Assembly (NCBI GenBank): GCA_963796455.1
Contig: CAWCLO010000010.1
Span: 448,001-512,000 of the forward strand
Source: Candidatus Sulfomarinibacteraceae bacterium
GTDB lineage: Bacteria; Acidobacteriota; Thermoanaerobaculia; Thermoanaerobaculales; Sulfomarinibacteraceae
Direction of reading: 5' to 3'
DNA: 64,000 nucleotides
Shown: piece after piece, positions 19,370 to 37,553 of the stretch
How positions within the stretch are numbered: the first letter of the stretch is position 1
Layout: each line of letters begins with the position of its first letter
Made by a program: the position numbers and the translations under genes
The notes under the pieces: model-generated
Told to the model about the DNA's origin: nothing
The model's database searches: none
What the model saw: the letters and a program-made list of their open reading frames with translations, nothing else

Positions 19370-20797
19370 ATGTCCATCATTACCATCTCACGAGGATCCT
19401 TTTCTGGAGGCGCCCAACTCGCGGAGGAGCTGCACGAACGGCTTGGCTGGAAAAACCTGAGCCAGGAGGATGTCTCCGCAGCCGGCGCCCAGGCCTACCG
19501 GATCACCGAGCAGGAGCTCTTTCGCGGCCTCTATCTCCCGGCCAACTTCTTCGAACGCTTTACCCACCGAAAGACCCGCTATCTCCTGGCCACACAGGCC
19601 ATCGTCACCGAACTGCTGCCGGACGGTGACGGCATCTACCACGGTCTCGCGGGTCAGTTTCTTTTTGCCGATCTCTGCAACGCCTTCAAAGTCAGGATCG
19701 TCGCACCGATGGATTTCAGAATCCAGACTGCGATGCGTCGCCTCAGCCTCACTCGGGACGAGGCGGTGCGCCACATCCGAGACGCCGACGAACACCGTCT
19801 GCGGTGGAGTCGACAGATCTTTGACGCCGACATCAAAGACCCCGCCCTGTACGACCTGGTCGTCAGTCTCGAGTCGGTCAATATCGAGACAGCCGCCGAC
19901 ATGATCGCCGAGATCATGGAGAGCGACGACCACCGCCCGACACCGCAGTGTGTGCAGGACTACCGGGACTTCGCCCTCGAACGAAGGGTCCGGGCTGAGT
20001 TGTTTTTCAATTCACCATTCACACCGGACATCACCGAGATCACGGTCAAGGACGGCGAGGTCTCTCTGACCGGTGACAAAGCCTTCCGGACAGCCCGGGA
20101 GCCCCTCGTGGAGTTCGTCGGCAAGATCCGTGGCGTCGAGACCATCCGGACCGATCTGGGAACGACTGACGCGATTGAGTTCTCGGTCGACGATGATTTC
20201 GCCCTGTCCTCCAAAGACGCGACGGCGCGCGATGTCATGCTACCGCCTGAACAGTATCCTCACTGCCATACAAACTGCACCATGCGTGAGTCGATCGTGG
20301 CACTCAGCGCATCGGCCGTCAAACTCGAGGACGGCCACATCATGCTGCCCCGATATGTTTTGGTTCTCGACGACGACGATCAACTGGTCGGCGTGGTCAG
20401 CCGCCGCGAGCTGCTCAAGGGTTTGATTCCACATCTCATCGAGGACCGCGAGACCGCGGCCCACATCAAGGAGTTGGTGCCCTTTGGCGGCCAGATGCCG
20501 AGTGAGGTCTTCATCCGCTGGACCTCTCTCTTTTCGCGGGCCGCCATCGAGGCCTCGAAGGAATCCATCAAATCGGTCATGGTGCCGATCAAGGGAACCG
20601 TTCAGGTTGATGATTCACTGTCAACCGTCATTACCACGATGCTCCACTACGGCATCGATCTGGTGGCCGTCCTGGATGGAAAAAAGGTCGCGGGTGTGGT
20701 TCTGATGACCAATATCTTCGATATCGTCGCGCAGTTTGTCATGGAGCACGGCTCGAAGCCGACACTGTCCTCATCGGAGGTCCCGACCGATGGCTGA
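19370..20797 (+). CDS. Cytidylate kinase-like / BON-like / CBS-pair fusion protein
   Basis: IITISRGSFSGG and DPALYDLVV (Cytidylate_kin2-like); ITVKDGEVSLTG (BON-like); TARDVM..VLVLDDDDQLVGVVSRRELL and IKSVM..VAGVV (CBS pair). Confidence 0.8.
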   Translation: MSIITISRGSFSGGAQLAEELHERLGWKNLSQEDVSAAGAQAYRITEQELFRGLYLPANFFERFTHRKTRYLLATQAIVTELLPDGDGIYHGLAGQFLFADLCNAFKVRIVAPMDFRIQTAMRRLSLTRDEAVRHIRDADEHRLRWSRQIFDADIKDPALYDLVVSLESVNIETAADMIAEIMESDDHRPTPQCVQDYRDFALERRVRAELFFNSPFTPDITEITVKDGEVSLTGDKAFRTAREPLVEFVGKIRGVETIRTDLGTTDAIEFSVDDDFALSSKDATARDVMLPPEQYPHCHTNCTMRESIVALSASAVKLEDGHIMLPRYVLVLDDDDQLVGVVSRRELLKGLIPHLIEDRETAAHIKELVPFGGQMPSEVFIRWTSLFSRAAIEASKESIKSVMVPIKGTVQVDDSLSTVITTMLHYGIDLVAVLDGKKVAGVVLMTNIFDIVAQFVMEHGSKPTLSSSEVPTDG

Positions 20798-22355
20798 TAC
20801 CTCGACTTTGCCAGCAGGCTCGAAAACCCGCGCTCGTTGGGCCTACAAGTTTTTCAAAAAGCCCAAGGCACCGGTTGACTGGAAGCGTCTGTTCTTCATC
20901 TGCCTCGGGCTGACACTGTTTTTCGGAGTCTACCTGTCCCCGCCATGGCCGGCGGCCATCGATCCCATGGGGGAGGCCTTCGAACTCAACAGCCAGGGCA
21001 AGGCGGCGCTCGGACTGTTCCTGCTGGCCGCCGTCTGGTGGGTCTTCGAAGTCATCCCCATCGGCGTCACCAGCGTCACCATCGCCGTCATCCAGGCCCT
21101 TTTTCTGATTCGGCCTGACGTCATGCTGGTCGGTGGCAAGGACTCGGTCGGTGGCGCCGAGTTGGCCTTCAAGGAGTTCATGCACCCCTCGGTCTGGTTC
21201 ATCTTCGGTTCGATCATCATCGGCATGGTCTTCACCAAGACCGGACTCACCAAGCGGCTCGCATACAAGATGCTCGTGTTGGTCGGTGAGAAGACCAGCC
21301 GCATCTATCTCGGTTGCTTTGTCATGACCGCCACACTGACCCTCGTCATGGCACACACCGCGGTGGCCGCCACCATTTTCCCGCTGCTGGTGGCGATCTA
21401 CCGGCTCTACGACGAGGGTGACGAACCCACCAACTTCGGTAAGGGCCTCTTCATGGGTATGGCGTATGTGGCGGGTGCCGGCAGCATCATCACCCTCCTC
21501 GGCGCCGCCCGCGGTGCGGTGGCGCTTGGCTTCTACAAAGAGATCACCGGTAAGGACGTCAGTTTCTTCGGGTTGACGTGGTACATGTTCCCCATCGGGT
21601 GGGTCATGGTCTTCGTTCTGTGGGCCTTCTTCATGGTGTACTACAAACCGGAGCGAGCCTCGATCCCCGGTCTCAGGGAACGCGCCCGGGATCTTTACGC
21701 CAATCTCGGACCGATCACCGCCAAGGAAATCCAGGCCGCAACCATCGTGCTCGCGGCGGTCTCGGTCATGAGCCTGCGCTCCTTCATTCCAGCCTTGAAG
21801 AGCGTCGACAAGAGTGGCGTCATCCTCACCGCAACCGTGCTCTTCTTCGTCCTCAAGATCCTCGATATCGGAGATCTCGAGAACGTGCCCTGGAACATCA
21901 TCCTGCTCTTTGGCGGCGCCATGAGCCTGGGTTATTGCCTGGTCCTGACCGGTGCCGCCGATTGGCTGGCCATCAACACCGTGTCGATGCTCAAAACGGC
22001 ACCGCCCCTGGTCTTCATCGTCGGAATGGCGACCTTTGTCATGATCATGACCAACCTGATCATGAACGTCGCGGCCATCGCCATCTGTCTCCCGGTGGCC
22101 CTCAAGGTCGCGCCGTACCTCGGTGTGGGCGGTGAAGTGATTCTCTTCAGCGCCCTGGTTGTCGCCGGCATGCCCTTCCTACTCCTGGTCGGTGCCGCCC
22201 CCAACGCCATCGCCTATGAGAGCAAACAGTTCACTTCAGGTGAGTTTTTCAAGGCCGGCATCCCGGCGAGCATTCTGCTGATCATCGTCACCGCGATCTT
22301 TGTCATCTTTATCTGGCCGATCATGGGGATGGAGGTGACCATACCCACACCCTGA
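20790..22355 (+). CDS. SLC13/DASS family anion transporter
   Basis: Many TM helices; WWVFEVIPIGVT, TGLTKRLA, VPWNIILLFGGAMSLG, GAAPNAIAY, EFFKAG. Confidence 0.9.
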   Translation: MADTSTLPAGSKTRARWAYKFFKKPKAPVDWKRLFFICLGLTLFFGVYLSPPWPAAIDPMGEAFELNSQGKAALGLFLLAAVWWVFEVIPIGVTSVTIAVIQALFLIRPDVMLVGGKDSVGGAELAFKEFMHPSVWFIFGSIIIGMVFTKTGLTKRLAYKMLVLVGEKTSRIYLGCFVMTATLTLVMAHTAVAATIFPLLVAIYRLYDEGDEPTNFGKGLFMGMAYVAGAGSIITLLGAARGAVALGFYKEITGKDVSFFGLTWYMFPIGWVMVFVLWAFFMVYYKPERASIPGLRERARDLYANLGPITAKEIQAATIVLAAVSVMSLRSFIPALKSVDKSGVILTATVLFFVLKILDIGDLENVPWNIILLFGGAMSLGYCLVLTGAADWLAINTVSMLKTAPPLVFIVGMATFVMIMTNLIMNVAAIAICLPVALKVAPYLGVGGEVILFSALVVAGMPFLLLVGAAPNAIAYESKQFTSGEFFKAGIPASILLIIVTAIFVIFIWPIMGMEVTIPTP

Positions 22356-22391
22356 TCGATCGCAGCGGACACAGCCTCGAGGAGGACCGAG

Positions 22392-23006
22392 TTGCCTACC
22401 GAAAAAATGATCGACGGTTACCGCCAATTCAGAGAGAAATTCGAATCCGAGCACGAGGTCTTCGAGCGTCTCGCCGAGGAAGGGCAGAATCCCAAGGTGT
22501 TGTGGATCGGCTGCTGTGATTCAAGGGTCGTACCCGAATTGATCACCGGGTCCGACCCCGGCGAACTCTTCGATCTCCGCAACATCGCCAACATCGTGCC
22601 GCCGCCGGCCTCCGCTGCGTGCGCCGCGGGCGCAGCCATCGAATACGCGGTCATACACCTCGAGGTGACGCACATCGTGGTCTGCGGACATACCGATTGC
22701 GGTGGGATCGCAGCTCTGGAGGCACCACCCTCGGCAGAGGACGAACCTCACATCGCCTCCTGGCTCGAGCTCGCGATGCCGGCCAGGACAGACGTGCTGT
22801 CGCGGGGAATCGAATCGCAGGACATCTATCTCGAGACCATCAAAACCAACGTCCTGATGCAGTGTGAAAACCTGAGAACCTACCCTTGCGTTGCCGAAAG
22901 AATCGGCGCCGGGAAGCTCTCGGTCCACCCCTGGCTCTACGATCTCCACACCGGTGAGATTCTCGAGTGGAACGAATCCTGGGGGGCCGTCGCCCAATTC
23001 TCCTGA
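22392..23006 (+). CDS. Beta-class carbonic anhydrase
   Basis: GQNPKVLWIGCCDSRV, RNIAN and VCGHTDCGG zinc ligands; TTG start after GGAGG. Confidence 0.94.
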   Translation: MPTEKMIDGYRQFREKFESEHEVFERLAEEGQNPKVLWIGCCDSRVVPELITGSDPGELFDLRNIANIVPPPASAACAAGAAIEYAVIHLEVTHIVVCGHTDCGGIAALEAPPSAEDEPHIASWLELAMPARTDVLSRGIESQDIYLETIKTNVLMQCENLRTYPCVAERIGAGKLSVHPWLYDLHTGEILEWNESWGAVAQFS

Positions 23007-24209: not shown

Positions 24210-24312
24210 GCGTTCAGAGCGAGAGCCGGCTCAATGACCACCCTTTATGAGAATGGTCTGTACCCAGAACTCGTCACTCTTTACCCCTTGAGGCCGGCCG
24301 GTCGCTCGGCAA

Positions 24313-24753
24313 TCACGGAACGACAGCTGAGAGCTCACCGCTGATTACGACGCCGACGTCGTTGAGGGTTGTCTCTTCGAGGCGGGCACGCAGCAGGGTG
24401 TTGGCCTCGACGACGATTCTTCCGATGATGCAGGTTTCGCCATCACAAATCGCCGCACTGAGAAGACATCGGCTTGGGCTCGAAGGGCCCCTCGATGGCC
24501 TCGAACACTTCGAGGAGAGTGACGGTCTCAGGGTCGCGAGTGAGAAGAAACCCGCCCTTCGGCCCTCGGATCGACCGCACAAGGTCGACCCGGATCAAGC
24601 GCTGCAGGACCTTGGACGAGGTGCGCCTCCGAGATTTCAAATCTGGCTGCAATCTGCCTCGCGGTCACTGGAGCATCATTACGAACGGCGAGATAACCCA
24701 AGCGCATGAATGGCCAGAGAGGCCGCTTCAGAGATCTTCAACGCACACGGCAT
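24313..24753 (-). CDS. Rrf2 family Fe-S transcriptional regulator; ~3 frameshifts, reconstructed
   Basis: Joined frames give MPCALKISEAASLAIHAL..IAARFEISEAHL.KVLQRL..VRSIRGPKGGF.L..TLLEVFEAIEG...CLLSAAICDGETC (three Cys). Confidence 0.88.
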
Positions 24754-24807
24754 CTATTTTTCCTCGTTTCAACGAAAGCACTGGAAGGGACGCTCCGAGA
24801 GGACCGT

Positions 24808-24825
24808 CCTTGACCTCGGTCAAGG
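24808..24825. promoter_or_regulatory. FNR/DNR (CRP-FNR family)-like box in the divergent rrf2/nos promoter
   Basis: Palindrome CC-TTGAC-CTCG-GTCAA-GG, a TTGAT-N4-ATCAA-type site. Confidence 0.65.
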
Positions 24826-24915
24826 ATACACATACCGTATTCAGGCTATTAAGTAATCAAATACCGACTATTCCGGTAACAAATCGACCCAGACCGGAAG
24901 GAATGGTCGGAGGGA

Positions 24916-26931
24916 ATGGCTCGATCGACACCTGCTGATCGCGGCGACGGTTGCGGAGCTCTCGTTGGTGAGCGACAACGCCATCGGTCAGCCCGCGTTT
25001 TGCGGCACGATTCAATGATCTGCCTTGGTACCGCTCAAACGTTCCCTGCATGGAAGCCTGTCCGGTCCACACCGATTCGGGCCGCTATGTCCAGCTGATC
25101 GCCGAGCAACGCTTCGCCGAAGCTTTCATGGTCGCCCGTTCACCCAATCCGCTGGCCTCGGTCTGCGGCCGGGTCTGTTCCGCACCCTGCGAGGACGCAT
25201 GCCGGCGGGCCTGGGTCGACGAAGCGATCACCATTCGCCCCCTCAAGCGATTCGTGACTGAAAAGTACGGTGCCGAGTCCTCGCAGCCGGATTTCTTCAA
25301 ACTCCTGATGTCCGGTCCGGACGGAGACATCGAAGCCAATCCCGGAGCGCAACGACTCGTGGCACATCGAACGTCTCAGCAGATGAGGCCTCCGCTGCGG
25401 CCCACCGCGGTCACCGGGTGGCGGTTGTCGGCAGCGGTCCGGCCGGTCTGGGGTGCGCCCACGATCTGGCGCTCATGGGCTATGACGTGACTGTCTTCGA
25501 GGCTCTGCCCGAACTCGGAGGGATGCTCCGCTACGGGATACCCGAATACCGCCTGCCACGAGGTGTCATCGACCGCGAAATTTCGGCGATCGAAAAGCTC
25601 GGGGTCACATTTCACAGAAACCGTCCGATTACCAACGACTTCGGTCTCAAACAGCTCCGTGAAGATGGATTCGAAGCCATCTTCCTGTCCGTCGGCGCCA
25701 TGCGCGGACGGGACCTCTCGATCGACGGCTCCGACAAGGACGGCGTCATCAAGGCGGTCGACTATCTGCTCAACCTCAATCGCGGTTACCGCGTCGAGCT
25801 CGGTGAAAAGGTCGTGGTCATCGGCGGCGGATCGGTGGCCCTGGATGCCGCCCGGACAGCGGTCCGGGAGTTCTACAAACCCATGGAAGAGATCGAGCTC
25901 ACCGCCGAGGCGGTGGCCAACCAACCGGCCATGGATGCTGCGCGCGGCGCGCTTCGCGGGGGCGCCAGCCAGGTCCACGTCATTTCGCTCGAGTCACTCG
26001 ATGAGATGCCGGCTTCGAAAACCATCCAGGGCAAGGATGAACTCGACGAAGCCTTGGAAGAGGGCATCACCCTCCATCCCGGGTGGGGACCGCGAAGGAT
26101 CCTGGGCAGCAATGGGGTCGAGTCGATCGAGTTCGTCGGGGTCGAAAGCGTCTTTGACGACCAGGGGCGCTTCAACCCCACGTTTGACGAGGACCGCACC
26201 CTGGTCCTCGACGCAGACTCGGTGATCCTCGCCATCGGACAACAACCCGATTTCAGTTTTCTCTGCGCTGAGGACGGGGTCGAACTGGACACCGACCGGG
26301 ACCGTCAAGATCGACCCCGAGACCCTGGCGACCAGCGCCGCCGGCATCTATGCCGGCGGCGACGCGGCCTTTGGTCCGAGGATCGCCATCGAGGCGGTGG
26401 CCAACGGCAAACGTGCGGCGCGCTCGATCTCCGAATACCTGATCGGGTCAGAAAACCGAACTCCGGCTCCGGGTCGATATCGAAAAGGTGGCGATCGAGG
26501 AGTACTCGATGCCACGCCGGCGTACGAAAAGCGTGGTGCGACGCTCCGCGCCGACCGTCGATGCGGGCCGGCGGACAGGGATCACCGAAGTCGAAGAGGT
26601 GATGACGCCGCGAACAGGCAGGATCAGGCCGAACGATGTCTCGCCTGCCACATCGACACCATCTACGACCCGCTCCTTTGTGTATCTGTGCAACCGCTGC
26701 GCCGACATCTGCCCGGAAAAATGCCTAACCTTTGTTCCTCTCGAACAGGTCGAGATGCCGCCGGAGCAACTCGAAACCGCGGTCGCGGCCTATGGACACG
26801 CCACCGATCAACCGATGACCGTGCTGCTGAAAGACGACACCGTGTGCATCCGCTGTGGTCTTTGTGCCGAACGTTGTCCGACCGAGGCGATGACCATGGA
26901 ACGGTTCAACTTCACCGAATCGACGGAGTAA
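24916..26931 (+). CDS. GltD/NfnB-like FAD/NAD(P)H oxidoreductase with N-terminal Fe-S clusters and C-terminal 2x[4Fe-4S] ferredoxin domain; multiple frameshifts
   Basis: PCMEACPVH, CGRVCSAPCEDACRR, VVGSGPAGL, GGMLRYGIPEYRLP, VIGGGSVALDAAR, IYAGGD, RCLACH, CNRCADICP and CIRCGLCAERCP, read across shifting frames. Confidence 0.88.
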
Positions 26932-26936
26932 GTTTA

Positions 26937-27497
26937 GTGGCATCATCAGATTCAATCAACGCCGTATCGCAAACCAGCCCCGAACCGGGCGGAGCAGACG
27001 CGCCGCGGATTCCTGGACAAAACTGACAGCCGCGGTCGCTGGGCTCGGGGCGGCCTGATCATGAGTTGGCCGCTACTGCGATCACTGGTTCCAAACGTGC
27101 TCTACGAGCCACCCGAAGAAAGTTTCGAGTCGGCAGTCCCGAGAGTTTCCAAGAGGGCGTCACCTTTCTCGAGGAACACCGGATCTTTCTTTTCCGGGAG
27201 AGTTCGAACTTTCCACGCTGTGTCCGGAATCTGCACCCATCTCGGATGTACGGTGAAATTCTCACCCTATCCGCTGCCGCAGGAAGAAACCGTTCGCGAG
27301 ACTTCACCTTCCGGTCCGTCGGAGAATTCCATTGTCCCTGCCACGGATCCCGATTCCGGGGAGAAGGGACCAACTTCGCCGGCCCGCGCCCCCCGGCCCC
27401 CTCAAGTGCTTCCGCCTCGAAGTTTCACGGGCTACCGGTGAGTTGGTGGTGGATGTCGCGACCGAGGTTCCGCGCGAATTCAGACTGGTGGTCATAG
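26937..27497 (+). CDS. Rieske [2Fe-2S] subunit of a Rieske/cytochrome b complex; frameshifted
   Basis: Tat motif TRRGFL, TM helix, box 1 CTHLGC (~27231), box 2 CPCHGS (~27333), GPAPRPL. Confidence 0.9.
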
Positions 27498-29004
<1,507 letters not shown>

Positions 29005-29012
29005 GGTAACCG

Positions 29013-30275
29013 ATGATCAAAAAGATTTCTCAGCGCGAAATCCTGTTGGTGCTCATCGCCGCGGTTGGCAATCCTCGTCGTCGGCGTGGCGGCCATCGTC
29101 TTCGACACCGCACCGGAGTGGAAGTACTACCAGTCGGAGTTTGGCGCGATCATCACCGAGACCTTCGCTGACGTCGACCCGGCGACCCTGCCGTCAGGTG
29201 TCCAACAGATCTGGATCGAAAAGCTCGACCGCGTCGACCGCTGCACCACCTGTCATCTGGGGGTCGGGTGGCAAGGGTCTCGAGGAAGTCGAACAGCCCT
29301 GGACGACCCACCCGATGCCCGAGATCTTCGACAACCACCCGATCGAGGACTTCGGCTGCACCGTGTGTCACGGCGGCCAGGGCTTCGCGCTCTCAGAATA
29401 CGACGCCCATGGTTTTGTCGAAGCACTGGGAGGAGCCGCTCCTTTCGGACATCGCCGGCTCCGAATACGACCCGCAGGAACCCGCCGCCGCTGTACGAGA
29501 TCCAGTGCAATTTCTGCCACCGTTACGAGCGGTCGACCGAGGGCATGCCCTACATCAACAAGGCCAAGGGTTTCGTGCGAACCAAAGGCTGCAAGATCTG
29601 CCATGTGATCAACGGCTGACGGCGGCATAGCTGGGACCCGGATCTGACACGCGTGGGCGATAAGCACGCCGAGGGCTTCGATTTCTCGAATCTGGTCTCC
29701 GAACAGATGACGGTCTTCAACTGGCACATCAAACACTTCCAGTCGCCACCGACCATCGTGCCCGGACTCGATCATGCCCGAGATGAATTTCCAGTCGCAG
29801 CGAAGCACAGGCCCTCGCCATGTTGGTCATGAGCTGGCGCGACGACGAGGACCTGCCCCGGGCCTATCTTGCCGGGGTGGACCTCAAGGACGAGATGACG
29901 CCGGAGGAGGTCGAAAGGGATCTTCGAATGCGCGAAGGTGACGGAGCCTTTTTTGTCGAGCACAACTGCTTTGTGTGCCACAGCGTCAAGGCCTACGACA
30001 TCAAATCGCCGACCGACAAGGGACCCGATCTGTCGCTGGCGCCGGACGACGTCCGGGCGCGATTGAACAAGACGGTCGAGGAGTTCCTCTTCGAACCGAC
30101 CGGCACCATGAAGATCATTCTCGAAAGCCAGATCGTTCTATCCGACGAAGAAAAGTGGCAGGCCGTCGAAAAGATCATGAAGGCTTACGACATCGTCAAA
30201 AACCGAGCTGCGGAGGCCGAAGCCGCAGCGAGCGACGGTCGTAGATCCGTACAACAAGGAGGAGGCAGCAGATGA
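29013..30275 (+). CDS. Membrane-anchored penta-heme cytochrome c; frameshifted
   Basis: N-terminal TM helix; CxxCH at ~29242 (CTTCH), 29357 (CTVCH), 29506 (CNFCH), 29590 (CKICH) and 29967 (CFVCH); GPDL motifs. Confidence 0.85.
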
Positions 30276-32181
30276 ACAGGAAGACTATCTTTCGATTGAC
30301 GCTCGCGTTGCTCGTCATCGGGCTCTTCGTCGGGCTTGCAGCATGCGGTAAAAAGCCGCCCAGCGGCGTGGCGCACGCGCCGGTGGTGGTGGAACATCAG
30401 ATCTGGCGAGCGCGGCATTGGCAACCTATGTGGCACCCGGGCGATCTCGACGAGTACTACCTCTTTTACTCGGGCGGGCACAGTGGGCAGATCTTTGTCG
30501 TCCGGCATCCCTTCGATGCGCCACATCGCGACCATCCCGGTCTTCACACCCTACCCGGGCACAGGGTTATGGATTTGACGATGAGTCCAAGGAAATGCTC
30601 GGTGACTACACGTGGGGCGATTCCCACCATCCGGGCTTCTCGGAGACCGACGGCGAATATGACGGACGCTGGCTCTTTATCAACGACAACGCCAAGGGCC
30701 GTATCGCCCGGATCGATCTGAAAGGACTTCAAAACCAAACAGATCATGAGCATTCCGAACATCTCGGCCAACCACGGCAGTTCCTTTGTCACCCAGAACT
30801 CGGAGTACGTGACGATGGCGACCCGGATGTCGGTGCCGTTCCCGGAGGGGACCTATGCCGATATCACCGAGTACGCGACCAAGTACAAGGGGATCGTCGC
30901 CGGGCATCAAGATCGATCCCGAACGACGGCAACCTGACCCTGGGTTGGGAGGTCCTGGTCCCGCCCTTCAACTACGACCTCGGGGATGCCGGAAAGGGCC
31001 CCTCGGACGGATTCCTCTTCTGGACCTGCTACAACTCCGAACGTGAGTTCATCGAGGGCGGAAAACTGAGGTGACCGCGTCCCAGAAGGACAAGGACTAC
31101 ATCCTGATGGTGGACTACCGCGAGGCCGACAAAGCCATCGCCGCCGGCAGTTTCAAAACCGTCAAGGGCGCACCGGTGATCTTCCCGAGAAGAGACCTCG
31201 GGCGTGGCCTACTTCATCCCCCTCGCCAAATCGCCCCACGGCGTCGACGTCTCTCCGAGCGGTCGCTGGATCATCGGTTCGGGCAAACTGTCACCCACGA
31301 CCACGGTCTACGACATGGAAAAGATCAAGACCGCAATCGCCAACAAGGACTTCGAGGAGACCATCGACGGGATCCCGGTGCTCAACTACAACTCGGTGCG
31401 CGAGGCAGAGATCCCGGTCGGGCTCGGACCACTCCACACTCAGTTCGACGACAAGGGCTTTGCCTACACCTCCTCTTTGTCGAAAGCGCAGTCGCCAAAT
31501 GGAAGCTGCCGCCCTATGAGGCCGGAGCCGACATGAACCAGTACGTGGTCGACAAGCTGCCGGTGGCCTACAACATCGGCCATCTGGTTTCCGCCGAGGG
31601 CGACTCGATGAACCCCGATGGTAACTACTCGTGGCTCTCAACAAGCTCTCCAAAGGACGCCACCTTTCGGTCGGTCCGTCGATTCCGGAGTCCGCCCAGT
31701 TGATCGACATCTCGGGTGACAAGATGAAGTTGCTCTATGACGCCTTCACCGAACCCGAACCGCACTACGCGGTGATCATCAAGGCCGACAAGCTCGATCC
31801 CGATCGAGGTCTATAAAAAGGACGACCCCGAGTGGCCGTCCATACCCGATCGCGATCTGGGCCGCCGACGACGCCAGGATCGAACGCCGCGGCAACACGG
31901 TCGAAGTGTGGATGCTGGCGGTGCGGTCCTTCTTCGCGCCTGATGTCATTCGGGTCAACCGCGGTGACAATGTGATCATCCACGTGACCAATATCGAGCA
32001 GACCCGGGACGAGCTCCACGGTTTTGCCATCAATGACTACAACATCAACCTGGTGATCGACCCCGGCGAGACCAAGACAGTGAGCTTCACCGCCGACGAG
32101 TCCGGAGTCTTCGCCTTCTATTGCACCAATTTCTGTAGCGCACTGCACCAGGAGATGCAGGGCTACTTCCTCGTGAAATAG
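30272..32181 (+). CDS. nosZ: Clade II (Sec-dependent) nitrous oxide reductase; multiple frameshifts
   Basis: YVAPGDLDEYYLFYSGGHSGQ, GIPSMR, WGDSHHP, NHG, KSPHGVDVSP, GLGPLHTQFD, GH and EPH (CuZ His ligands); CuA HGF...CTNFCSALHQEM; no twin-arginine motif. Confidence 0.95.
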
Positions 32182-32191
32182 AACGATGCCA

Positions 32192-32232
32192 GGGCCCCGG
32201 CGCACCGATCGCGGTCGCCGGGGCCCAGTTTT
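32192..32232 (+). terminator. Strong stem-loop after nosZ (partial terminator or mRNA stabiliser)
   Basis: GGGCCCCGGCG...CGCCGGGGCCC stem followed by AGTTTT. Confidence 0.65.
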
Positions 32233-32242
32233 CGAGGTCCAC

Positions 32243-32854
32243 ATGTCAGGATTTCTTCAAACGGCTTTCCGCTGCGCTCGATCGACCTCTGGTCGGCTCG
32301 CAGCAGGTTGGCGGTTCTGGCCGCCGCTCTGGTCCTGATTCCGACCTTCTTCGTTCCTTTGTGGCACATGACATTTGTCGCGCAGCAATACCCGGAGGGT
32401 CTGAATCTCTACGTCTATTCCCACAACCTGGTGGGCGGAGATGATGGCAATGATCTGACCGAGATCAACGTGCTCAACCACTACATCGGGATGGCAGAGC
32501 TCAAACCCGCAGATTTCAACGAACTCAAGTGGATTCCTCTGGTCATCGGTCTGATCTGCATCCTGACCCTCAGAGCCGCCGCCATCGGAAATCTCGCGGT
32601 CCCTGGTCGACGTCATCATGATCGCCGCCTATTTCGGCGCATTCTCGATATGGAGCTTCTGGTACAAGCTCAACTATTACGGCGCGAATCTCGACCCAAA
32701 GGCCTCCGTTCAAGTGGAGCCATTCATGCCGCCGATGTTCGGATACAAACTCGTCGGCCAGTTCGATGTGTGGTCGTACCCGTCCCTGGGTACCTACTTT
32801 TTCCTGATCTTTGGTCTTCTTCTGCTCGATGGGTTTCTGGTGGACCTGGCGTGA
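32243..32854 (+). CDS. nosB: NosB-like membrane protein of clade II nos clusters; frameshifted
   Basis: PLWHMTFVAQQYPEGL, EINVLNHYIGM, YGANLDPKA and FMPPMFGYKLVGQF motifs; directly after nosZ. Confidence 0.85.
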
Positions 32855-32899
32855 CGTCGAGCCCTCGCAGTGAGCCCCTTTTGTGAAAATTTGGAGGAA

Positions 32900-33414
32900 A
32901 TGATGAAAAAGCTCATGTTGTTTGCCCTGGCTTCGGGACTCCTACTCGGTTGCGGCGGTGGCACGAGATGAGACGATGTACGAGGCAGAAGAAAGCCGAA
33001 GCGCCGAGGTCGTCTTGCTCGAGGTCGAAGCGCCGCCGGCGCTCGAGGTTCCCGAACCCCGCGAGGTGATGGCTGAGGACGACTGGGAAGCCCGGGCCCA
33101 CAACAAGAACATCGAGGTTCTGGGGGTCATCAACATCATCAATCCGGTTGCTGCCTATATCGTCGAAGGCTTCAAACAATATGGCGACAGTTTCAGCCCC
33201 ACCCTGCACGAAGAGTGGGAGGACACCCAGGTTCAGCTGACCACAGCCACCACATTGTATGAGAGTTGCAACGAACGGATGGCTGCCGGAAAGTACGACA
33301 AACAGCTCTTCCTCGACCTCGAACAGGTGTGGCAGACACTGGTCAAGAACGGGCGTTGCCGGTGTTCGGACAAAAAGTATGGTTGACAGCGAGCTGGCAC
33401 GACTCAAAGGCTGA
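32900..33414 (+). CDS. Hypothetical lipoprotein inside the nos cluster; frameshifted
   Basis: SD GGAGG, MMKKLMLFALASGLLLGC lipobox, acidic helical body (ORF 32922-33386), reconstructed end ...SELARLKG at TGA 33412-33414. Confidence 0.65.
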
Positions 33415-33514
33415 TTCTCGGCTGAAGCGGCAGTCTGATCTGCGGCCGGCCCGAAGCTGGGCGGTGGGCGATGGGTGTGTGCTATATCTGACTCCTTTTT
33501 GTGAATTGGAAGGT

Positions 33515-34914
33515 ATGCGAGCGGTGAAACCATTTTGCTGGTTGCTGGCCGTCATGTCGACCGCGACGGCTGTTGCGACGGTTCGCGAGGTCCCGAGCGG
33601 GGGATCCATTGCGGCAGTTCTCATTCAGGCCGAGCCCGGTGACACGGTTCACCTGGCCGACGGGATCTACCGCGAGAACATCCTCATCGAGGTTCCAGTG
33701 CTCCTCACCGGGGGGCCGGGACGCCGAGATTCGGGGTGGCTACGCAGAGCAACGTGGTCCACATCACCGCCCCCGGAACCGTTGATGGAGGGGCTGCACA
33801 TCGCCGAGGCCGGCCCCCATCTGACAAAGGACATGGCCTGTATCTTGATCGAGGCCGATGACGTGACGATCCGCAACACGAAAGTCTCGGAATCGCTGCA
33901 CGGAATCTATGTCAAGGCCGGCCACCGGAGTACGGATCATCGGCAATACCATCGAGGGGCGGCTCGACCTCATCGAATCCGATCGTGGCAACGGGATTCA
34001 TCTCTGGAACTCGACCGACAACCAGGATCCTGGACAACGAGATCTTCAACGTGCGCGATGGGATCTATTTCTCCTTCGCCCACCAAACGGAGATCCATCG
34101 CAACCACATCCACCACGTTCGATACGGCCTCCACTACATGTACTCGAACCAGAACAGCTTCTACGACAACCTCTTCGAAGAGAATGTCGCCGGGGCAGCC
34201 CTGATGTACTCGGAAGACATCATCTTCGCGCGCAACACCTTTGCCCGATGTCGCGGCTTCCGCGCCTATGGAATCCTCTTTCAGTCCATGAGCCGGGTCC
34301 GCGCGACCTCCAACCTCGTGATCGACAACAGCCGCGGTCTCTTCATGAACAACGCCGACTCGTGTGCCATCGAAAACAACGACATCATCGACAACGACCT
34401 GGCGATCCAACTCAACGGCGGCTGCGAGGGGAAACTCCTTTGTCCGCAACAACTTCATCAACAATCTCTCGGGAGCTTCTCCTCGATGTCAGCGACCGGG
34501 AGACCCATTGGTCGGATGAGGAGGGTGGAAACCACTGGAGCGCATACCATGGTTACGATCTGGACCGCGATGGTCTCGGCGACGTTCCCTTCTCGATTCA
34601 GAATGTTTTTCAGGTTCTGGAAACCAAGGTCCCGGAGGTTCGCTTCTACCTTCTGAGCCCTGCGGCCGAGGTCCTCAAAGCGGCCGAGAACGCGTTGCCG
34701 ATTCTCCGCCTCGGGGACGCAGAGGATCCTCTCCCCCGGCTGTATCCGGTGACCAATGACGCGGTGCCGTGGGATGAGGTCAGTGGCTCCCGCGAGGATG
34801 GATAACTTCGTCGCGGCCGGGTTCTTTCTCCTCGGAACGACCATTCCCATGGCCGGTCTGTGGCTGTTTCGGCGGCCGCGAAGAAGACCAAAACCGGATG
34901 GTTCGGTTTCATGA
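33515..34914 (+). CDS. nosD: NosD maturation protein with C-terminal membrane helix; frameshifted
   Basis: AEPGDTVHL..GIYRENI, DRGNGIHLWNS, VRDGIY, RYGLHYMYS, GNHWSAY.GYDLDRDGLGDVPF. Confidence 0.92.
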
Positions 34915-35850
34915 GCGCTCCAACAAAAGCCATGGTCCGTCTCGAGTCCTTTTCGAAGTCCTATGGGTGTGGTAACCGCGGTCGATGACCTGAGCCTCGA
35001 GATCGCACCCGGAGAGTCCTTCGCTTTTCTCGGTCCGAACGGAGGCGGAAAGACTTCCGTCCTGAGGGCTCTCGCGGGTCTCCACTCCCCGAAGCAGGGG
35101 CCGGGTTCTGATTCGCGGAATCGACATCCAGAAAGACCTCAACCGCATCCGGCCGTGGCTCGCCTATGTTCCACAGCGGGTCACCGTGCCCGATGTCCTG
35201 ACCGCGAGAGAGGTCCTCGACCTCTTCGCGGGTCTGCGGGATGTGGCGCCGACCCGCGTGGCGGAGGTTCTCGAGCTCTTCGAACTCTCCGACCGACGCC
35301 GACCGAAGGGTCGGCGAGTTCTCGGGAGGAATGCTCCAAAGGCTCGGTCTCGCCTCGGCGCTGCTCGAGGAGGTGCCGCTCCTGATCCTGGACGAACCGA
35401 CCCTCAATCTCGACCCCCAGGGCATCGACAGCCTGCACCGGGCACTCGCCGATCTCAAAGAGAGAGGATCGACGATCGTTTTCTCCTCGCACAGTATCCA
35501 TACCGCCGTCCGGCTTGCCGACCGGGTGGGCGTTCTGGTCGCCGGGGATCTCGTCACCGTCGATACCGGTGGCTGCCTTTCAGGCCGAGGTCACCCGCCA
35601 GACCACCGTCAAGGTCGTGCTCGATCAACTCGACGACGGCATGCTCCGGGCGGCCCGAACGGCGGGTGCTGAAATCCGCGACCACACCGCAACCCATATC
35701 TTCTTTCGCGCATTGCCCGAGGACCGTCTCGCGGTCATCCGCGCGATCGAGGGCGCCGGTGGGACCGTCATGGAATTCCACACCGAGGCGCCGGGGTGGG
35801 AGGCGTTGATCCACTCCCGTTTCAACGGCCAAGGAGATCCCCCGTGCTGA
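34911..35850 (+). CDS. nosF: NosF ABC transporter ATPase; frameshifted
   Basis: GPNGGGKT Walker A, FSGGMLQRLGLA signature, LILDEPT Walker B, SSH; ATGA overlap with nosD. Confidence 0.88.
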
Positions 35851-36617
35851 CGCTCGACAAAGCCCCGAAGAAAAGCCTCGCACTGAGCCTGATGGTATCG
35901 CTGTGTGCAGGGATCATGGGATGTTCTGGTGAGGTCACACCGGAGATCATCGCCCGTGTTGATGGATGCCGGGAGTGCGGAATGGTGATCGATCGCGTCG
36001 ACGAGGCCTGCGGATGGGTTCACGACGGGGAGTTCGTGACCTTCTGCTCGCCCGGCTGCCTCCTCGAGCAACATGATGGGCTCCGGGCCACCGGCAAAGA
36101 ACTCCCTGTATCGATCTCCTTTGCCGACTATAACGGGAGTGGATTCTCCGTCGCCGAAAACACCGCCTTTCTTCTCACCGACCACGTGCCGACGGTGATG
36201 AACGCCCGCGTGATCACTTTTGCATCGACCGAAGCCGCCTCGGCCATGCGTCAGCACGAAGACGAAATCATCACCGATTGGATCGGATACCGCGTATACC
36301 GGGGCCGGCCGGATGTCGTCGTCGAGACGGTATTCACGAATGAAGGGATGGAGCCGGAATCGGTGGGCGTTGCCAAGGGTGAGATCGTTTTGTGGCGGGC
36401 CACCGGGCGTGGGCTCGAGGAGGACTTGAACTTCAGCATCGGAGGTTATCCTGAGGTCGGACCTGCAACACTCGCAGCGGGCGACGGGATGACGGAGATT
36501 CGTTTTCTCGCAACCCGTCCCGGGGCCGGATTCCCGATCGAGAGGACGGACGATGGCAGGGCCATCGGAATGCTCAAGGTCAGTGGCGCCCACACCGCCG
36601 ACGAGGCCGCGCAGTGA
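35844..36617 (+). CDS. nosL: NosL family copper-chaperone lipoprotein with a C-terminal cupredoxin-like extension
   Basis: Lipobox IMGC; CRECGMVI, FCSPGC and VPTVM..VITF motifs; extra ~105-aa beta-rich C-terminal domain. Confidence 0.8.
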   Translation: MLTLDKAPKKSLALSLMVSLCAGIMGCSGEVTPEIIARVDGCRECGMVIDRVDEACGWVHDGEFVTFCSPGCLLEQHDGLRATGKELPVSISFADYNGSGFSVAENTAFLLTDHVPTVMNARVITFASTEAASAMRQHEDEIITDWIGYRVYRGRPDVVVETVFTNEGMEPESVGVAKGEIVLWRATGRGLEEDLNFSIGGYPEVGPATLAAGDGMTEIRFLATRPGAGFPIERTDDGRAIGMLKVSGAHTADEAAQ

Positions 36618-37435
36618 AGATCCTCCAGATCGCCAATCAAGAGTTCACCCTCCACACCCGTAACCGGTGGGTGATCTCCTTTTCGGCTCTTTTCGCCGGC
36701 CTCGGTTTGGCGGTCGCCTATTTCGGCATGATCACCTCGGGCTACAGCGGTTTCCAGGACTTTGTCCGGACCTCCGCCAGTCTGATCAACCTCGGTGGCT
36801 TTTTGTTGCCGCTCTTTGCCCTGCTGCTCGGTGTCTTCAGTTTTCTCACCCATCGCGAGTATCTCGAACTCCTCGCAACCCAACCCGTTTCACGCCGCCA
36901 GATTCTGCTCGGCAAATACCTCGGTCTCCTGCTGTCGGTGCTGGCCGCCGCGGCCCTCGGTTTTGGCCTGCCCGGCGCCGTCATCGCGGTATCGATCGGT
37001 AGCGAGGGCGCCGGCACCTACGTCCTGGTCATTCTTTTTCTCGGTTTGTTGGCTGCCGTCTTCACCGGTCTGTCGATGCTGATCGCCCTTGTCTCCGGGC
37101 GCCGCCCGGTCGCCCTCGGCATCGCCATCGGAGTCTGGGTTTTCTTCGAATTGGTTTATGGCCTGCTGATGCTGGCGACCACTCTCTATCTTCCCGCAAA
37201 GATCGTCAGTAACGTGCTCCTGGCCGGTCTTGCCGGAAACCCCATCGATATCGTGAGGGTGTTGTGCCTGCTTCAAGTCGGTGGCCCGGCCCTCTTCGGT
37301 CCGGCCGGCGCAACCCTGATCAAGATCACCGGATCGGCCACCGTTGCGACTGCCATCGGTCTCGCGATTGTCGCCCTCTGGATCGTCGTGCCCCTCGTCA
37401 TCGCGATGTGGGTGTTCAAACGACAGGATCTGTAG
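36614..37435 (+). CDS. nosY: NosY ABC transporter permease
   Basis: RNRW, RTSASLINL..LLPL, LELLATQPVSR..ILLGKYLG, NPIDIVR; six TM helices. Confidence 0.9.
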   Translation: MKILQIANQEFTLHTRNRWVISFSALFAGLGLAVAYFGMITSGYSGFQDFVRTSASLINLGGFLLPLFALLLGVFSFLTHREYLELLATQPVSRRQILLGKYLGLLLSVLAAAALGFGLPGAVIAVSIGSEGAGTYVLVILFLGLLAAVFTGLSMLIALVSGRRPVALGIAIGVWVFFELVYGLLMLATTLYLPAKIVSNVLLAGLAGNPIDIVRVLCLLQVGGPALFGPAGATLIKITGSATVATAIGLAIVALWIVVPLVIAMWVFKRQDL

Positions 37436-37450
37436 CACCGTTATCCGTCC

Positions 37451-37553
37451 GATACTGGATGCTAGATGCTAGATGCTAGATGCTAGATGCTAGATGCTAG
37501 ATGCTAGATGCTAGATGCTAGATGCTAGATGCTAGATGCTAGATGCTAGATGC
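37451..37553. repeat. Heptamer tandem repeat (GATGCTA)x13
   Basis: 13 perfect copies at 37458-37548, plus a variant GATACTG and a partial copy; reverse-complement variants (GAGTATC/CAGTATC) at ~37652-37672. Confidence 0.95.

Follow-up and report, generated by a model that had tools for sequence, protein, structure and literature searches.

Where do the two electrons of a quinol go when the gene for a nitrous oxide (N2O) reductase is preceded by genes for a five-heme cytochrome c, a cytochrome b, a Rieske protein, and a cytoplasmic flavoprotein? This question is raised by a locus of Candidatus Sulfomarinibacteraceae bacterium (assembly GCA_963796455.1; 5.0 Mb, 10 contigs) in a stretch of 64,000 nucleotides, hereafter called the window (contig CAWCLO010000010.1, positions 448,001 to 512,000, forward strand). 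A run of genes on its + strand, from about 24965 to 37435, encodes a flavoprotein, a Rieske protein, cytochrome b, a five-heme cytochrome c, NosZ, NosB, an unknown protein, and NosDFLY. In our favored reading, which we hold with about even confidence on the strength of the predicted proteins, this front end would bifurcate the electrons of menaquinol, sending one to NosZ and N2O and the other to nicotinamide adenine dinucleotide (NAD+).

The original prediction, a first reading of the window's letters and open frames, had described these genes as one co-directional run. Their content and order were confirmed, with intact copies collinear in same-genus relatives, but the flavoprotein start that it had placed at 24916 was corrected to near 24965. 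The copy in genome G018 (locus L004) is intact and was used as the reference, and the family matches given below were scored on it. The predicted genes of the run are as follows, in window coordinates.

24965 to 26931, + strand: cytoplasmic flavoprotein with flavin adenine dinucleotide (FAD) and four iron-sulfur clusters, DsrL/NfnB-like architecture; start approximate
26937 to 27497, + strand: Rieske [2Fe-2S] protein exported by twin-arginine translocation (Tat), ligand boxes CTHLGC and CPCHGS, Ser/Phe second sphere
27498 to 29004, + strand: cytochrome b6 fused to subunit IV, 498 amino acids, four heme-b histidines and APWY
29013 to 30244, + strand: membrane-anchored five-heme cytochrome c, true stop TAG at 30242 to 30244
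30272 to 32181, + strand: NosZ, clade II (general secretory [Sec] type), lipobox-like LAAC, without a fused heme domain
32190 to 32874, + strand: NosB-like membrane protein, by its position after nosZ and by similarity
32900 to 33414, + strand: putative lipoprotein, unknown, about 172 amino acids, lineage restricted, between nosB and nosD
33524 to 34914, + strand: NosD (TIGR04247 over the cut-off)
34911 to 35850, + strand: NosF, ATP-binding cassette (ABC) ATPase
35844 to 36617, + strand: NosL with a C-terminal extension of about 110 amino acids; start approximate
36614 to 37435, + strand: NosY, ABC-2 permease, intact

Proposed quinol oxidation at the outer site

The Rieske protein carries a Tat signal (TIGR01409, 24.3 bits; cut-off, 16.7), two ligand boxes, and the disulfide cysteines. 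Its best matches in the PDB were Kuste4569 (5e-22) and Kustd1480 (3e-16), and its serine is kept in 37 of 37 nos-linked loci. A potential of +335 mV was measured for Kustd1480, which has the same Ser/Phe pair (PMC12954380). By likeness to Kuste4569 and Kustd1480, we infer that the Rieske protein of the window is of the high-potential type, near +300 mV. The cytochrome b fold matches that of bc1 cytochrome b, and the four heme histidines (His105, His119, His212, and His227) are present together with APWY at the outer quinol site. The cytochrome c is 407 amino acids long in G018 and has five CxxCH motifs, all of which are readable in the frames of the window. Matches over the cut-off to the complex I subunit NuoF and to MqnC were found in five of five genomes, and matches to RnfC were found in none of the five.

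Because the four heme histidines, APWY, and the Rieske ligands are kept and the host makes menaquinone, menaquinol would be oxidized at the outer site. The first electron would then pass from the Rieske protein through the five-heme cytochrome c to NosZ and N2O.

Probable absence of an inner quinone site

On the inner side of cytochrome b, the position of the heme c(n) cysteine is occupied by Trp or Tyr in 37 of 37 nos-linked proteins (Tyr54 here). The subunit IV glutamate is found in 0 of 38 (Ile296 here), and the second histidine near heme c(n) is found in 0 of 37, with Phe in its place in all 37. Where other terminal enzymes are encoded, 28 of 29 loci retain the glutamate, as do 21 of 23 loci without a flavoprotein, and the other cytochrome b subtypes mostly keep the inner-site Glu and His. 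The replacements point to the absence of an inner quinone-reduction site from the nos-linked clade, and since the cysteine, the glutamate, and the second histidine are all replaced, no quinone would be reduced there.

A Q cycle could still be retained if inner-site quinone received its second electron from the flavoprotein, a role that ferredoxin-NADP reductase (FNR) is thought to play in the b6f complex. FNR copurifies with b6f, and bc1 complexes reduce quinone without heme c(n) (PMC5600118). Although other subtypes of the present cytochrome b would suit such an NADH-assisted cycle, as they keep the Glu and His, the nos clade has neither residue and has a bulky Trp/Tyr at the c(n) position. 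Its position 232 is Arg, as in b6, and not the His of the bc1 type. We therefore consider an assisted Q cycle in the nos-linked complexes very unlikely.

Flavoprotein and its possible contact with cytochrome b

The flavoprotein is 652 amino acids long in G018 and consists of Fer4_20, Pyr_redox_2, and a C-terminal Fer4 dicluster. Its fold matches the large subunits of NfnABC and StnABC, and its PRK12771 score of 421 is below the cut-off of 516. All 35 nos-linked flavoproteins compared carry SLE as their cofactor motif, and an NAD-type cofactor is assigned because S-L-E agrees with what DsrL-1 shows for NAD(H) (PMC7596348). Exchange of electrons with NAD(P)(H) or ferredoxin had been proposed in the original prediction; the motif favors NAD and speaks against NADP, and nothing points to ferredoxin. 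Lys94 replaces the fourth ligand of the FAD-proximal cluster (kept in 35 of 35), two ligands of the distal cluster are supplied by a C-terminal RCxxC motif, and Arg575, the equivalent of Kuste4570 Arg511, is kept in 34 of 35. Among 112 paired loci, all 12 with YRR at the cofactor motif have the heme c(n) cysteine of cytochrome b, whereas none of the 99 others in which that position is occupied has it; the association counts as one event because only two clades are involved. The flavoprotein tree covers cytochrome b-linked proteins only and is unrooted, since the search for outgroups yielded just two shorter paralogues.

On the cytochrome b side, His36, Arg232, and Lys233 of a proposed bridging heme are present, and His36 and Arg232 are kept in 36 of 36 and 37 of 37 nos-linked proteins, respectively. 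The corresponding anammox heme at the cytochrome b dimer interface is a model prediction (Hauser et al. 2025, PMC12954380). His36 and Arg232 were rejected as indicators of a docked flavoprotein, since they are kept also where no flavoprotein is present. A structural model of the flavoprotein with cytochrome b had been suggested as a check. The model of the cytochrome b dimer (residues 1 to 385) with the C-terminal part of the flavoprotein scored 0.43, compared with 0.00 for the best of three controls, with at least 84% of contacts agreeing between runs and a partner predicted local distance difference test value of at least 69. Of 157 solved pairs, 116 reach the score mark, as do 2 of 215 mismatched ones; values of 0.60 or less account for only 18 of these solved pairs but for both mismatches. 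The model gives the flavoprotein-cytochrome b contact weak support.

Proposed bifurcation to NAD+ and its direction

In the favored reading, the second electron would run from the b hemes to a heme held by two His36 residues at the dimer interface and on through the four iron-sulfur clusters and FAD to NAD+. This route to a docked flavoprotein is proposed because there appears to be no inner quinone site and because the flavoprotein is the only cytoplasmic partner in the run. The NADH would be reoxidized by complex I or used in biosynthesis, and the cell would keep more of the energy gap to N2O than by a plain Q cycle. The reaction may be reversible.

With menaquinone at -74 mV and the Rieske protein at +303 to +335 mV, the margin is +131 to +163 mV at standard potentials. 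This is thin, about the size of the membrane potential that the electron must climb, so the reaction would need a well-oxidized high-potential chain, which N2O would give.

The same proteins might also be wired in the opposite direction, with the flavoprotein oxidizing NADH and feeding the b hemes from the cytoplasm. The outer site would then pass electrons to the Rieske protein or quinone and onward to NosZ, bypassing complex I. Such a direct path from NADH to N2O would act as a redox valve or serve fast N2O removal, at an energy cost. Loss of the inner site fits this direction equally well, as does the NAD-type SLE motif (35 of 35; pattern from PMC7596348), DsrL-type enzymes being bidirectional (PMC7596348), and the hosts, being heterotrophs, have NADH in surplus (PMC8528874). 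However, complex I was found in five of the five genomes checked, the outward movement of electrons would discharge the membrane, and a plain path of this kind has no need of the outer quinol site and high-potential-type Rieske protein, both of which are fully kept. NADH input is also less likely because complex I would already be the better NADH sink, an argument as in PMC12954380. We regard this direction as unlikely.

Several points weigh against bifurcation to NAD+ as well. The thin margin is one of them, and the NAD-type motif fits NADH oxidation equally. A heterotroph has little need to make NADH. NAD+ reduction is a prediction for every member of the group, and in the anammox complex, too, NAD(P)+ reduction is a proposal only (PMC12954380). 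His36 and Arg232 are kept in 35 and 36, respectively, of 37 cytochromes b without a neighboring flavoprotein, and Arg575 is absent from the flavoproteins linked to nitrite oxidoreductase (NXR)-, periplasmic nitrate reductase (Nap)-, nitrate reductase (Nar)-, and cbb3-type enzymes (0 of 28). The inner-site motif losses amount to one evolutionary event in one clade, and which histidine adjoins heme c(n) in the anammox models is our own assignment. The core genes occur without a flavoprotein in 38 of 201 loci, and the copy in the window is itself broken in the assembly.

A bolder version has, in our view, somewhat less than an even chance. In it, a widespread plug-in complex would have abandoned the Q cycle, and the pull of N2O, nitrate, or O2 would lift the second quinol electron to NAD+, in a loop with complex I that would translocate more charge for each N2O than chains described so far. 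The nos clade, in which all inner-site markers are gone, would be the purest form of this scheme, which would work in Anaeromyxobacter dehalogenans, the model N2O respirer of clade II. As for the overall interpretation offered originally, it gained from synteny, anammox homology, a Rieske protein of the high-potential type, the loss of inner-site markers, and, weakly, the model of the complex, and it lost NADP, ferredoxin, specificity for N2O, and the ATGA overlap described below.

Conservation of the module and its linkage to nosZ

We compared the run with those of related genomes by a DNA search of 31 genomes. All 12.4 kb are matched in G013, G014, and G018, with 77 to 78% nucleotide identity, G007 aligns to its contig end, and G022, from another family, aligns in pieces. 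A chimeric junction, which would have undone the original prediction, is contradicted by the collinearity of the run in G013, G014, and G018. Of 251 genomes of the class Thermoanaerobaculia (Acidobacteriota), 33 have nosZ, 26 of a close type and 7 of a divergent type. The flavoprotein subtype is present in 26 of the 26 close-type genomes, contiguous in 24 and split at contig ends in 2. It lies 5.0 to 6.1 kb upstream of nosZ on the same strand in 22 close-type genomes, to which G061 and the source genome are added; for 11 of these relatives the intervening genes were read as well. A flavoprotein score above 650 bits occurs in 24 other genomes, every one of which carries nosZ. Of the seven divergent nosZ loci, the six examined contained no Rieske, cytochrome b, or flavoprotein gene. 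The co-occurrence search suggested in the original prediction thus finds the flavoprotein subtype together with nosZ in every close-type genome.

Among 81 Anaeromyxobacteraceae genomes, 16 have nosZ; the full run is present in 15 of these and is cut by a contig end in 1. The flavoprotein of G269 is identical to ACL64896.1, named for A. dehalogenans 2CP-1, and lies 5.1 kb ahead of nosZ. Ignavibacteriaceae, Kryptoniota, and other Acidobacteriota came to light in two scans with a cytochrome b alignment, each of which covered about 600 stretches and retained the 80 best. The synteny of the flavoprotein with Rieske/cytochrome b and nosZ is fixed across several phyla. The nos-linked cytochromes b form one clade (FastTree support, 0.911), with a sister group that has no adjoining nosZ. 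The shortened loci L023 and L025 fall within this clade, and their genomes have nosZ; L027, L037, and L040, shortened loci outside it, come from genomes in which nosZ was not found. The NosZ-like matches in L084 and L110 end at contig ends and were classed as short, and L182, with a partial nosZ match, was counted as nos linked.

The flavoprotein could instead be merely coregulated, with the Rieske protein, cytochrome b, and cytochrome c forming a simple menaquinol:NosZ link like those of other clade II modules. A looser association of this kind would suit the 38 of 201 related cytochrome b loci without an adjoining flavoprotein, some of which are nested among flavoprotein-bearing clades, the four cbb3 loci in which the flavoprotein gene lies downstream of the oxidase genes, and the low score of the complex model (0.43). 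It is harder to reconcile with the nos-linked loci, since the flavoprotein is present in all 38 of those with enough upstream DNA (2 further loci are cut off) and was never lost there. The pairwise distances of flavoprotein, cytochrome b, cytochrome c, and NosZ are also correlated (Spearman coefficients of 0.77 to 0.87 over 30 loci, with kin not independent), and the anammox orthologues comigrate as one complex (PMC12954380, citing de Almeida 2016). A flavoprotein that is not a working subunit is in our view quite unlikely.

The same front end with other terminal enzymes

The chain had been thought to be dedicated to N2O, and this was not borne out, as related modules lie ahead of four further types of terminal enzyme or occur by themselves. 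A total of 201 cytochrome b loci were collected, 133 with a flavoprotein nearby, 38 without, and 30 too short to tell. The next enzyme among the 133 is NosZ in 38, a periplasmic NXR/Nar-like molybdoenzyme in 12, a NapA-like enzyme in 4, a cbb3-type oxidase in 10, and NarG or another type II member of the dimethyl sulfoxide reductase family in 3; in 22 there is none within 6 kb, and in 44 it is unknown. Most of these labels are best matches below the curated cut-off, and of the 38 NosZ-linked loci, 27 were collected on account of their nosZ or of DNA likeness and 11 came from the scans. All identified downstream partners use a high-potential acceptor (N2O, nitrate type, or O2), and the flavoprotein and cytochrome b trees group largely by partner enzyme. 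On this comparison of sequences, the front end is a plug-in module and is not unique to nos.

Several arrangements stood out among these loci. The front end with a six- to nine-heme cytochrome lies directly 5' of a Tat-exported NXR/Nar-like molybdoenzyme in L018 (5262 to 14445) and L019 (3974 to 14261), and the NXR/Nar-like arrangement also occurs in L035, L041 to L043, L050, L059, L066, L134, L146, and L155. The module with a large multiheme cytochrome stands ahead of a cbb3-type oxidase in L044, L045, L062, L079, L115, L049, L053, L054, L057, and L149, and the cbb3-linked loci include environmental chlamydiae; in four cbb3 loci the flavoprotein gene is downstream of the oxidase genes. An anammox-like Chloroflexota subtype with YRR and heme c(n) (L072, L074, L076, L078, L080, L085, L087, L093, L097, and L101) is followed by an unknown protein of 480 to 500 amino acids with no NCBIfam match at 1e-30. 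The sister clade of the nos module has a four-heme cytochrome and no adjoining terminal enzyme (L027, L105, L106, L108, L112, and L127). A second cluster of cytochrome b, Rieske protein, and seven-heme cytochrome, without a flavoprotein, is common in the genus (G000:C10:748631-750300; L020, L021, and L022).

nos genes and surroundings of the run

NosZ scored 853 bits with TIGR04246 (cut-off, 625) and was under the cut-off of TIGR04244 (G018 copy). The CuA motif CTNFCSALHQEM is readable in the window and occurs in 36 of 36 full-length linked NosZ proteins. For the CuA and CuZ ligand motifs, the His motifs included, 35 to 36 of the 36 linked proteins matched per motif. The cluster is of the Sec-type clade II kind, with Sec NosZ, nosB after nosZ, nosDFY(L), and no nosR or nosX. 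The absence of nosR/nosX and nosG/nosH from the run, as originally described, was upheld. NapH-family matches over the cut-off were found in none of five genomes searched. FMN_bind matches in the searched genomes sit elsewhere, in open frames of 186 to 284 amino acids, presumably too short for NosR.

The NosB-like protein is 44 to 62% identical to the gene product at the same place in other clade II loci. It matched no Pfam or NCBIfam model and is named for its position and PMC11096178. The 172-amino-acid protein matched no Pfam family, its best Atlas match (0.79) is at most a lead, and among the fetched nos loci it occurs only in G013, G014, G018, and G144. NosL matched Pfam NosL with an E value of 0.018 and Atlas NosL clusters at 0.95 to 0.96; its C-terminal extension (about 110 amino acids; NosL at 35844 to 36617) looks beta rich and by eye is possibly cupredoxin-like.

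All genes listed for the run in the original prediction were found, and one gene beside it had been overlooked, as follows.

24281 to 24772, - strand: Rrf2-family regulator, divergent from the run, frameshifted in the assembly; TIGR00738, 99 bits, cut-off 73 (G018 copy)

An Rrf2 gene also stands ahead of the module in L018, L019, L026, L033, L035, and L215 to L218. An ATGA overlap of the cytochrome c and nosZ genes, which had been described for the window, is an artifact; four of four same-genus relatives end the cytochrome c gene 27 to 29 nucleotides before the nosZ ATG, and the window carries the matching TAG. The overlap was thus rejected as a sign of translational coupling. Among the 37 nos loci listed, only 5 Anaeromyxobacteraceae loci have genuine ATGA overlaps. 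A scan of the intact G018 copy for promoters and terminators gave counts close to those of shuffled sequences (2 versus 2.1 and 14 versus 9.5 ± 3.4). Just 3' of nosY, at 37458 to 37553, is a perfect 7-bp tandem repeat of 13.7 copies, and repeats resembling it are found on several contigs as well as in relatives. Farther upstream, one run at 19370 to 23006 encodes a cytidylate-kinase-like/BON/CBS protein, an SLC13-type anion symporter, and a carbonic anhydrase.

Frame breaks in the source genome

The frame breaks are confined to 24281 to 36420, and the neighboring genes are intact. Frame switches per 10 kb were 28, 16, and 7 at this island, compared with 1 to 8 in the other 37 of 40 bins of the contig stretch. 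The breaks look like assembly error at a thinly covered, strain-variable accessory island in a long-read assembly, which best explains them because of an excess of insertions, a balance of substitutions like that between intact copies, and few stops. Single-base insertions numbered 65 and deletions 30 (13 and 12 in the intact control G013), synonymous and nonsynonymous counts were 1294 and 707 (1324 and 701 between intact relatives), and there were 2 in-frame stops in 3907 aligned codons; G014, whose alignment was out of register, is left out of these counts. A very recent pseudogene, which would concern this copy only and is independent of the mechanism, would agree with the restriction of the breaks to the island and with the patchiness of the module in the genus (7 of 25 genomes). 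Against the insertion excess, the intact-like substitution balance, and the scarcity of stops, we find a pseudogene improbable.

Significance

That a Rieske/cytochrome b complex bifurcates electrons from quinol to NAD(P)H is an unproven proposal for anammox bacteria (PMC12954380), which are not genetically tractable. The same architecture stands ahead of nosZ in G269, whose flavoprotein is the one named for A. dehalogenans 2CP-1, so that the complex could be purified and deleted in a cultured soil bacterium. The nos version would be the cleaner test case, because features of the inner quinone site, in which Hauser et al. see the larger problem, are missing from it. For many N2O sinks of clade II in soils and sediments, it would also provide a concrete path of electrons. 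High yields on N2O have been reported for clade II organisms, and the module is a candidate reason for them.

Comparison with known systems

Rieske and cytochrome genes in clade II nos clusters (PMC11096178) and oxidoreductases beside subfamily G cytochrome b (PMC5600118) were already known. A literature search found no description of the flavoprotein together with Rieske/cytochrome b and nosZ, although figures or supplements of the key papers may show the gene. NosZ was noted in Sulfomarinibacter in a main text that does not mention Rieske or cytochrome b (PMC8528874, available part), and the available parts of PMC5317091, PMC11409646, and PMC11102522 add nothing on the module.

The flavoprotein shares the four-domain order of the DsrL/NfnB-GltD family, with an N-terminal cluster domain, FAD and NAD(P) Rossmann folds, a linker, and a C-terminal two-cluster ferredoxin, and enzymes of the DsrL type work in either direction (Loffler et al. 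2020, PMC7596348). In contrast to that family, it has Lys where NfnB has Glu117, lacks the DsrL Ser/Thr at the third distal ligand, and is linked to cytochrome b and nosZ rather than to dsrAB, with no dsr gene in the run. For cytochrome b subfamily G, oxidoreductase genes were noted near cytochrome b "in many other cases" beyond anammox, and fusion of cytochrome b was found to go with loss of heme c(n) (Dibrova et al. 2017, PMC5600118). The available text of that paper does not contain "nitrous," "Anaeromyxobacter," or "Acidobacteri" and gives no mechanism for the non-anammox cases.

The Sec-type NosZ, nosB, nosDFLY, and a quinol-linked supply through Rieske protein and b and c cytochromes are shared with other clade II systems. 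In Wolinella, the supply reportedly runs through NosGH/C1C2 and a Rieske/cytochrome bc pathway. Unlike these systems, the run described here is headed by a cytoplasmic NAD-type flavoprotein, has no NosGH, and encodes a NosZ without a fused heme. Rieske, cytochrome b, and cytochrome c genes occur in the nos clusters of Desulfosporosinus/Desulfitobacterium and Anaeromyxobacter, for which the available text names no flavoprotein (He et al. 2024, PMC11096178).

The closest relatives are the anammox complexes of Kuenenia stuttgartiensis (Kuste4569-4574 and Kustd1480-1485), whose proposed mechanism faces unwanted inner-side quinone reduction as the larger problem (PMC12954380). In the nos-linked clade, the cofactor motif is SLE (35 of 35) rather than the YRR of two of two anammox-like loci (L086 and L189), cytochrome b is fused to subunit IV rather than split with a Glu-ligated heme c(n), and the heme c(n) Cys, the Glu, and the second His are lost. 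The cytochrome has five hemes rather than six or eight, the partner is NosZ rather than a hydroxylamine oxidoreductase-like protein, the gene order is flavoprotein-Rieske, and the hosts are heterotrophic, some of them cultured. By heme c(n), split subunits, and YRR, the nos-linked module is thus not a strict member of the anammox type on the sequences compared. The kinship with the anammox complexes, to which the original prediction had pointed, nevertheless holds, as each of the four front genes has a homologue there. The genes of locus L189 are arranged as in Kuste4569-4574, and the locus is related to the run in flavoprotein (34% over 634 columns), cytochrome b (49%), subunit IV (49%), and the N-terminal part of cytochrome c (E value, 1e-11). 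Its His43, Arg247, and Arg511, at the residue numbers that Hauser et al. (2025) give for the bridging heme, align to His36, Arg232, and Arg575 here. Both systems encode the four homologous subunits together, with a four-cluster flavoprotein that has Lys at the FAD-proximal cluster, a Ser-containing Rieske protein, the His/Arg/Arg set of the predicted bridging heme, and the gene for a terminal N-oxide enzyme directly downstream.

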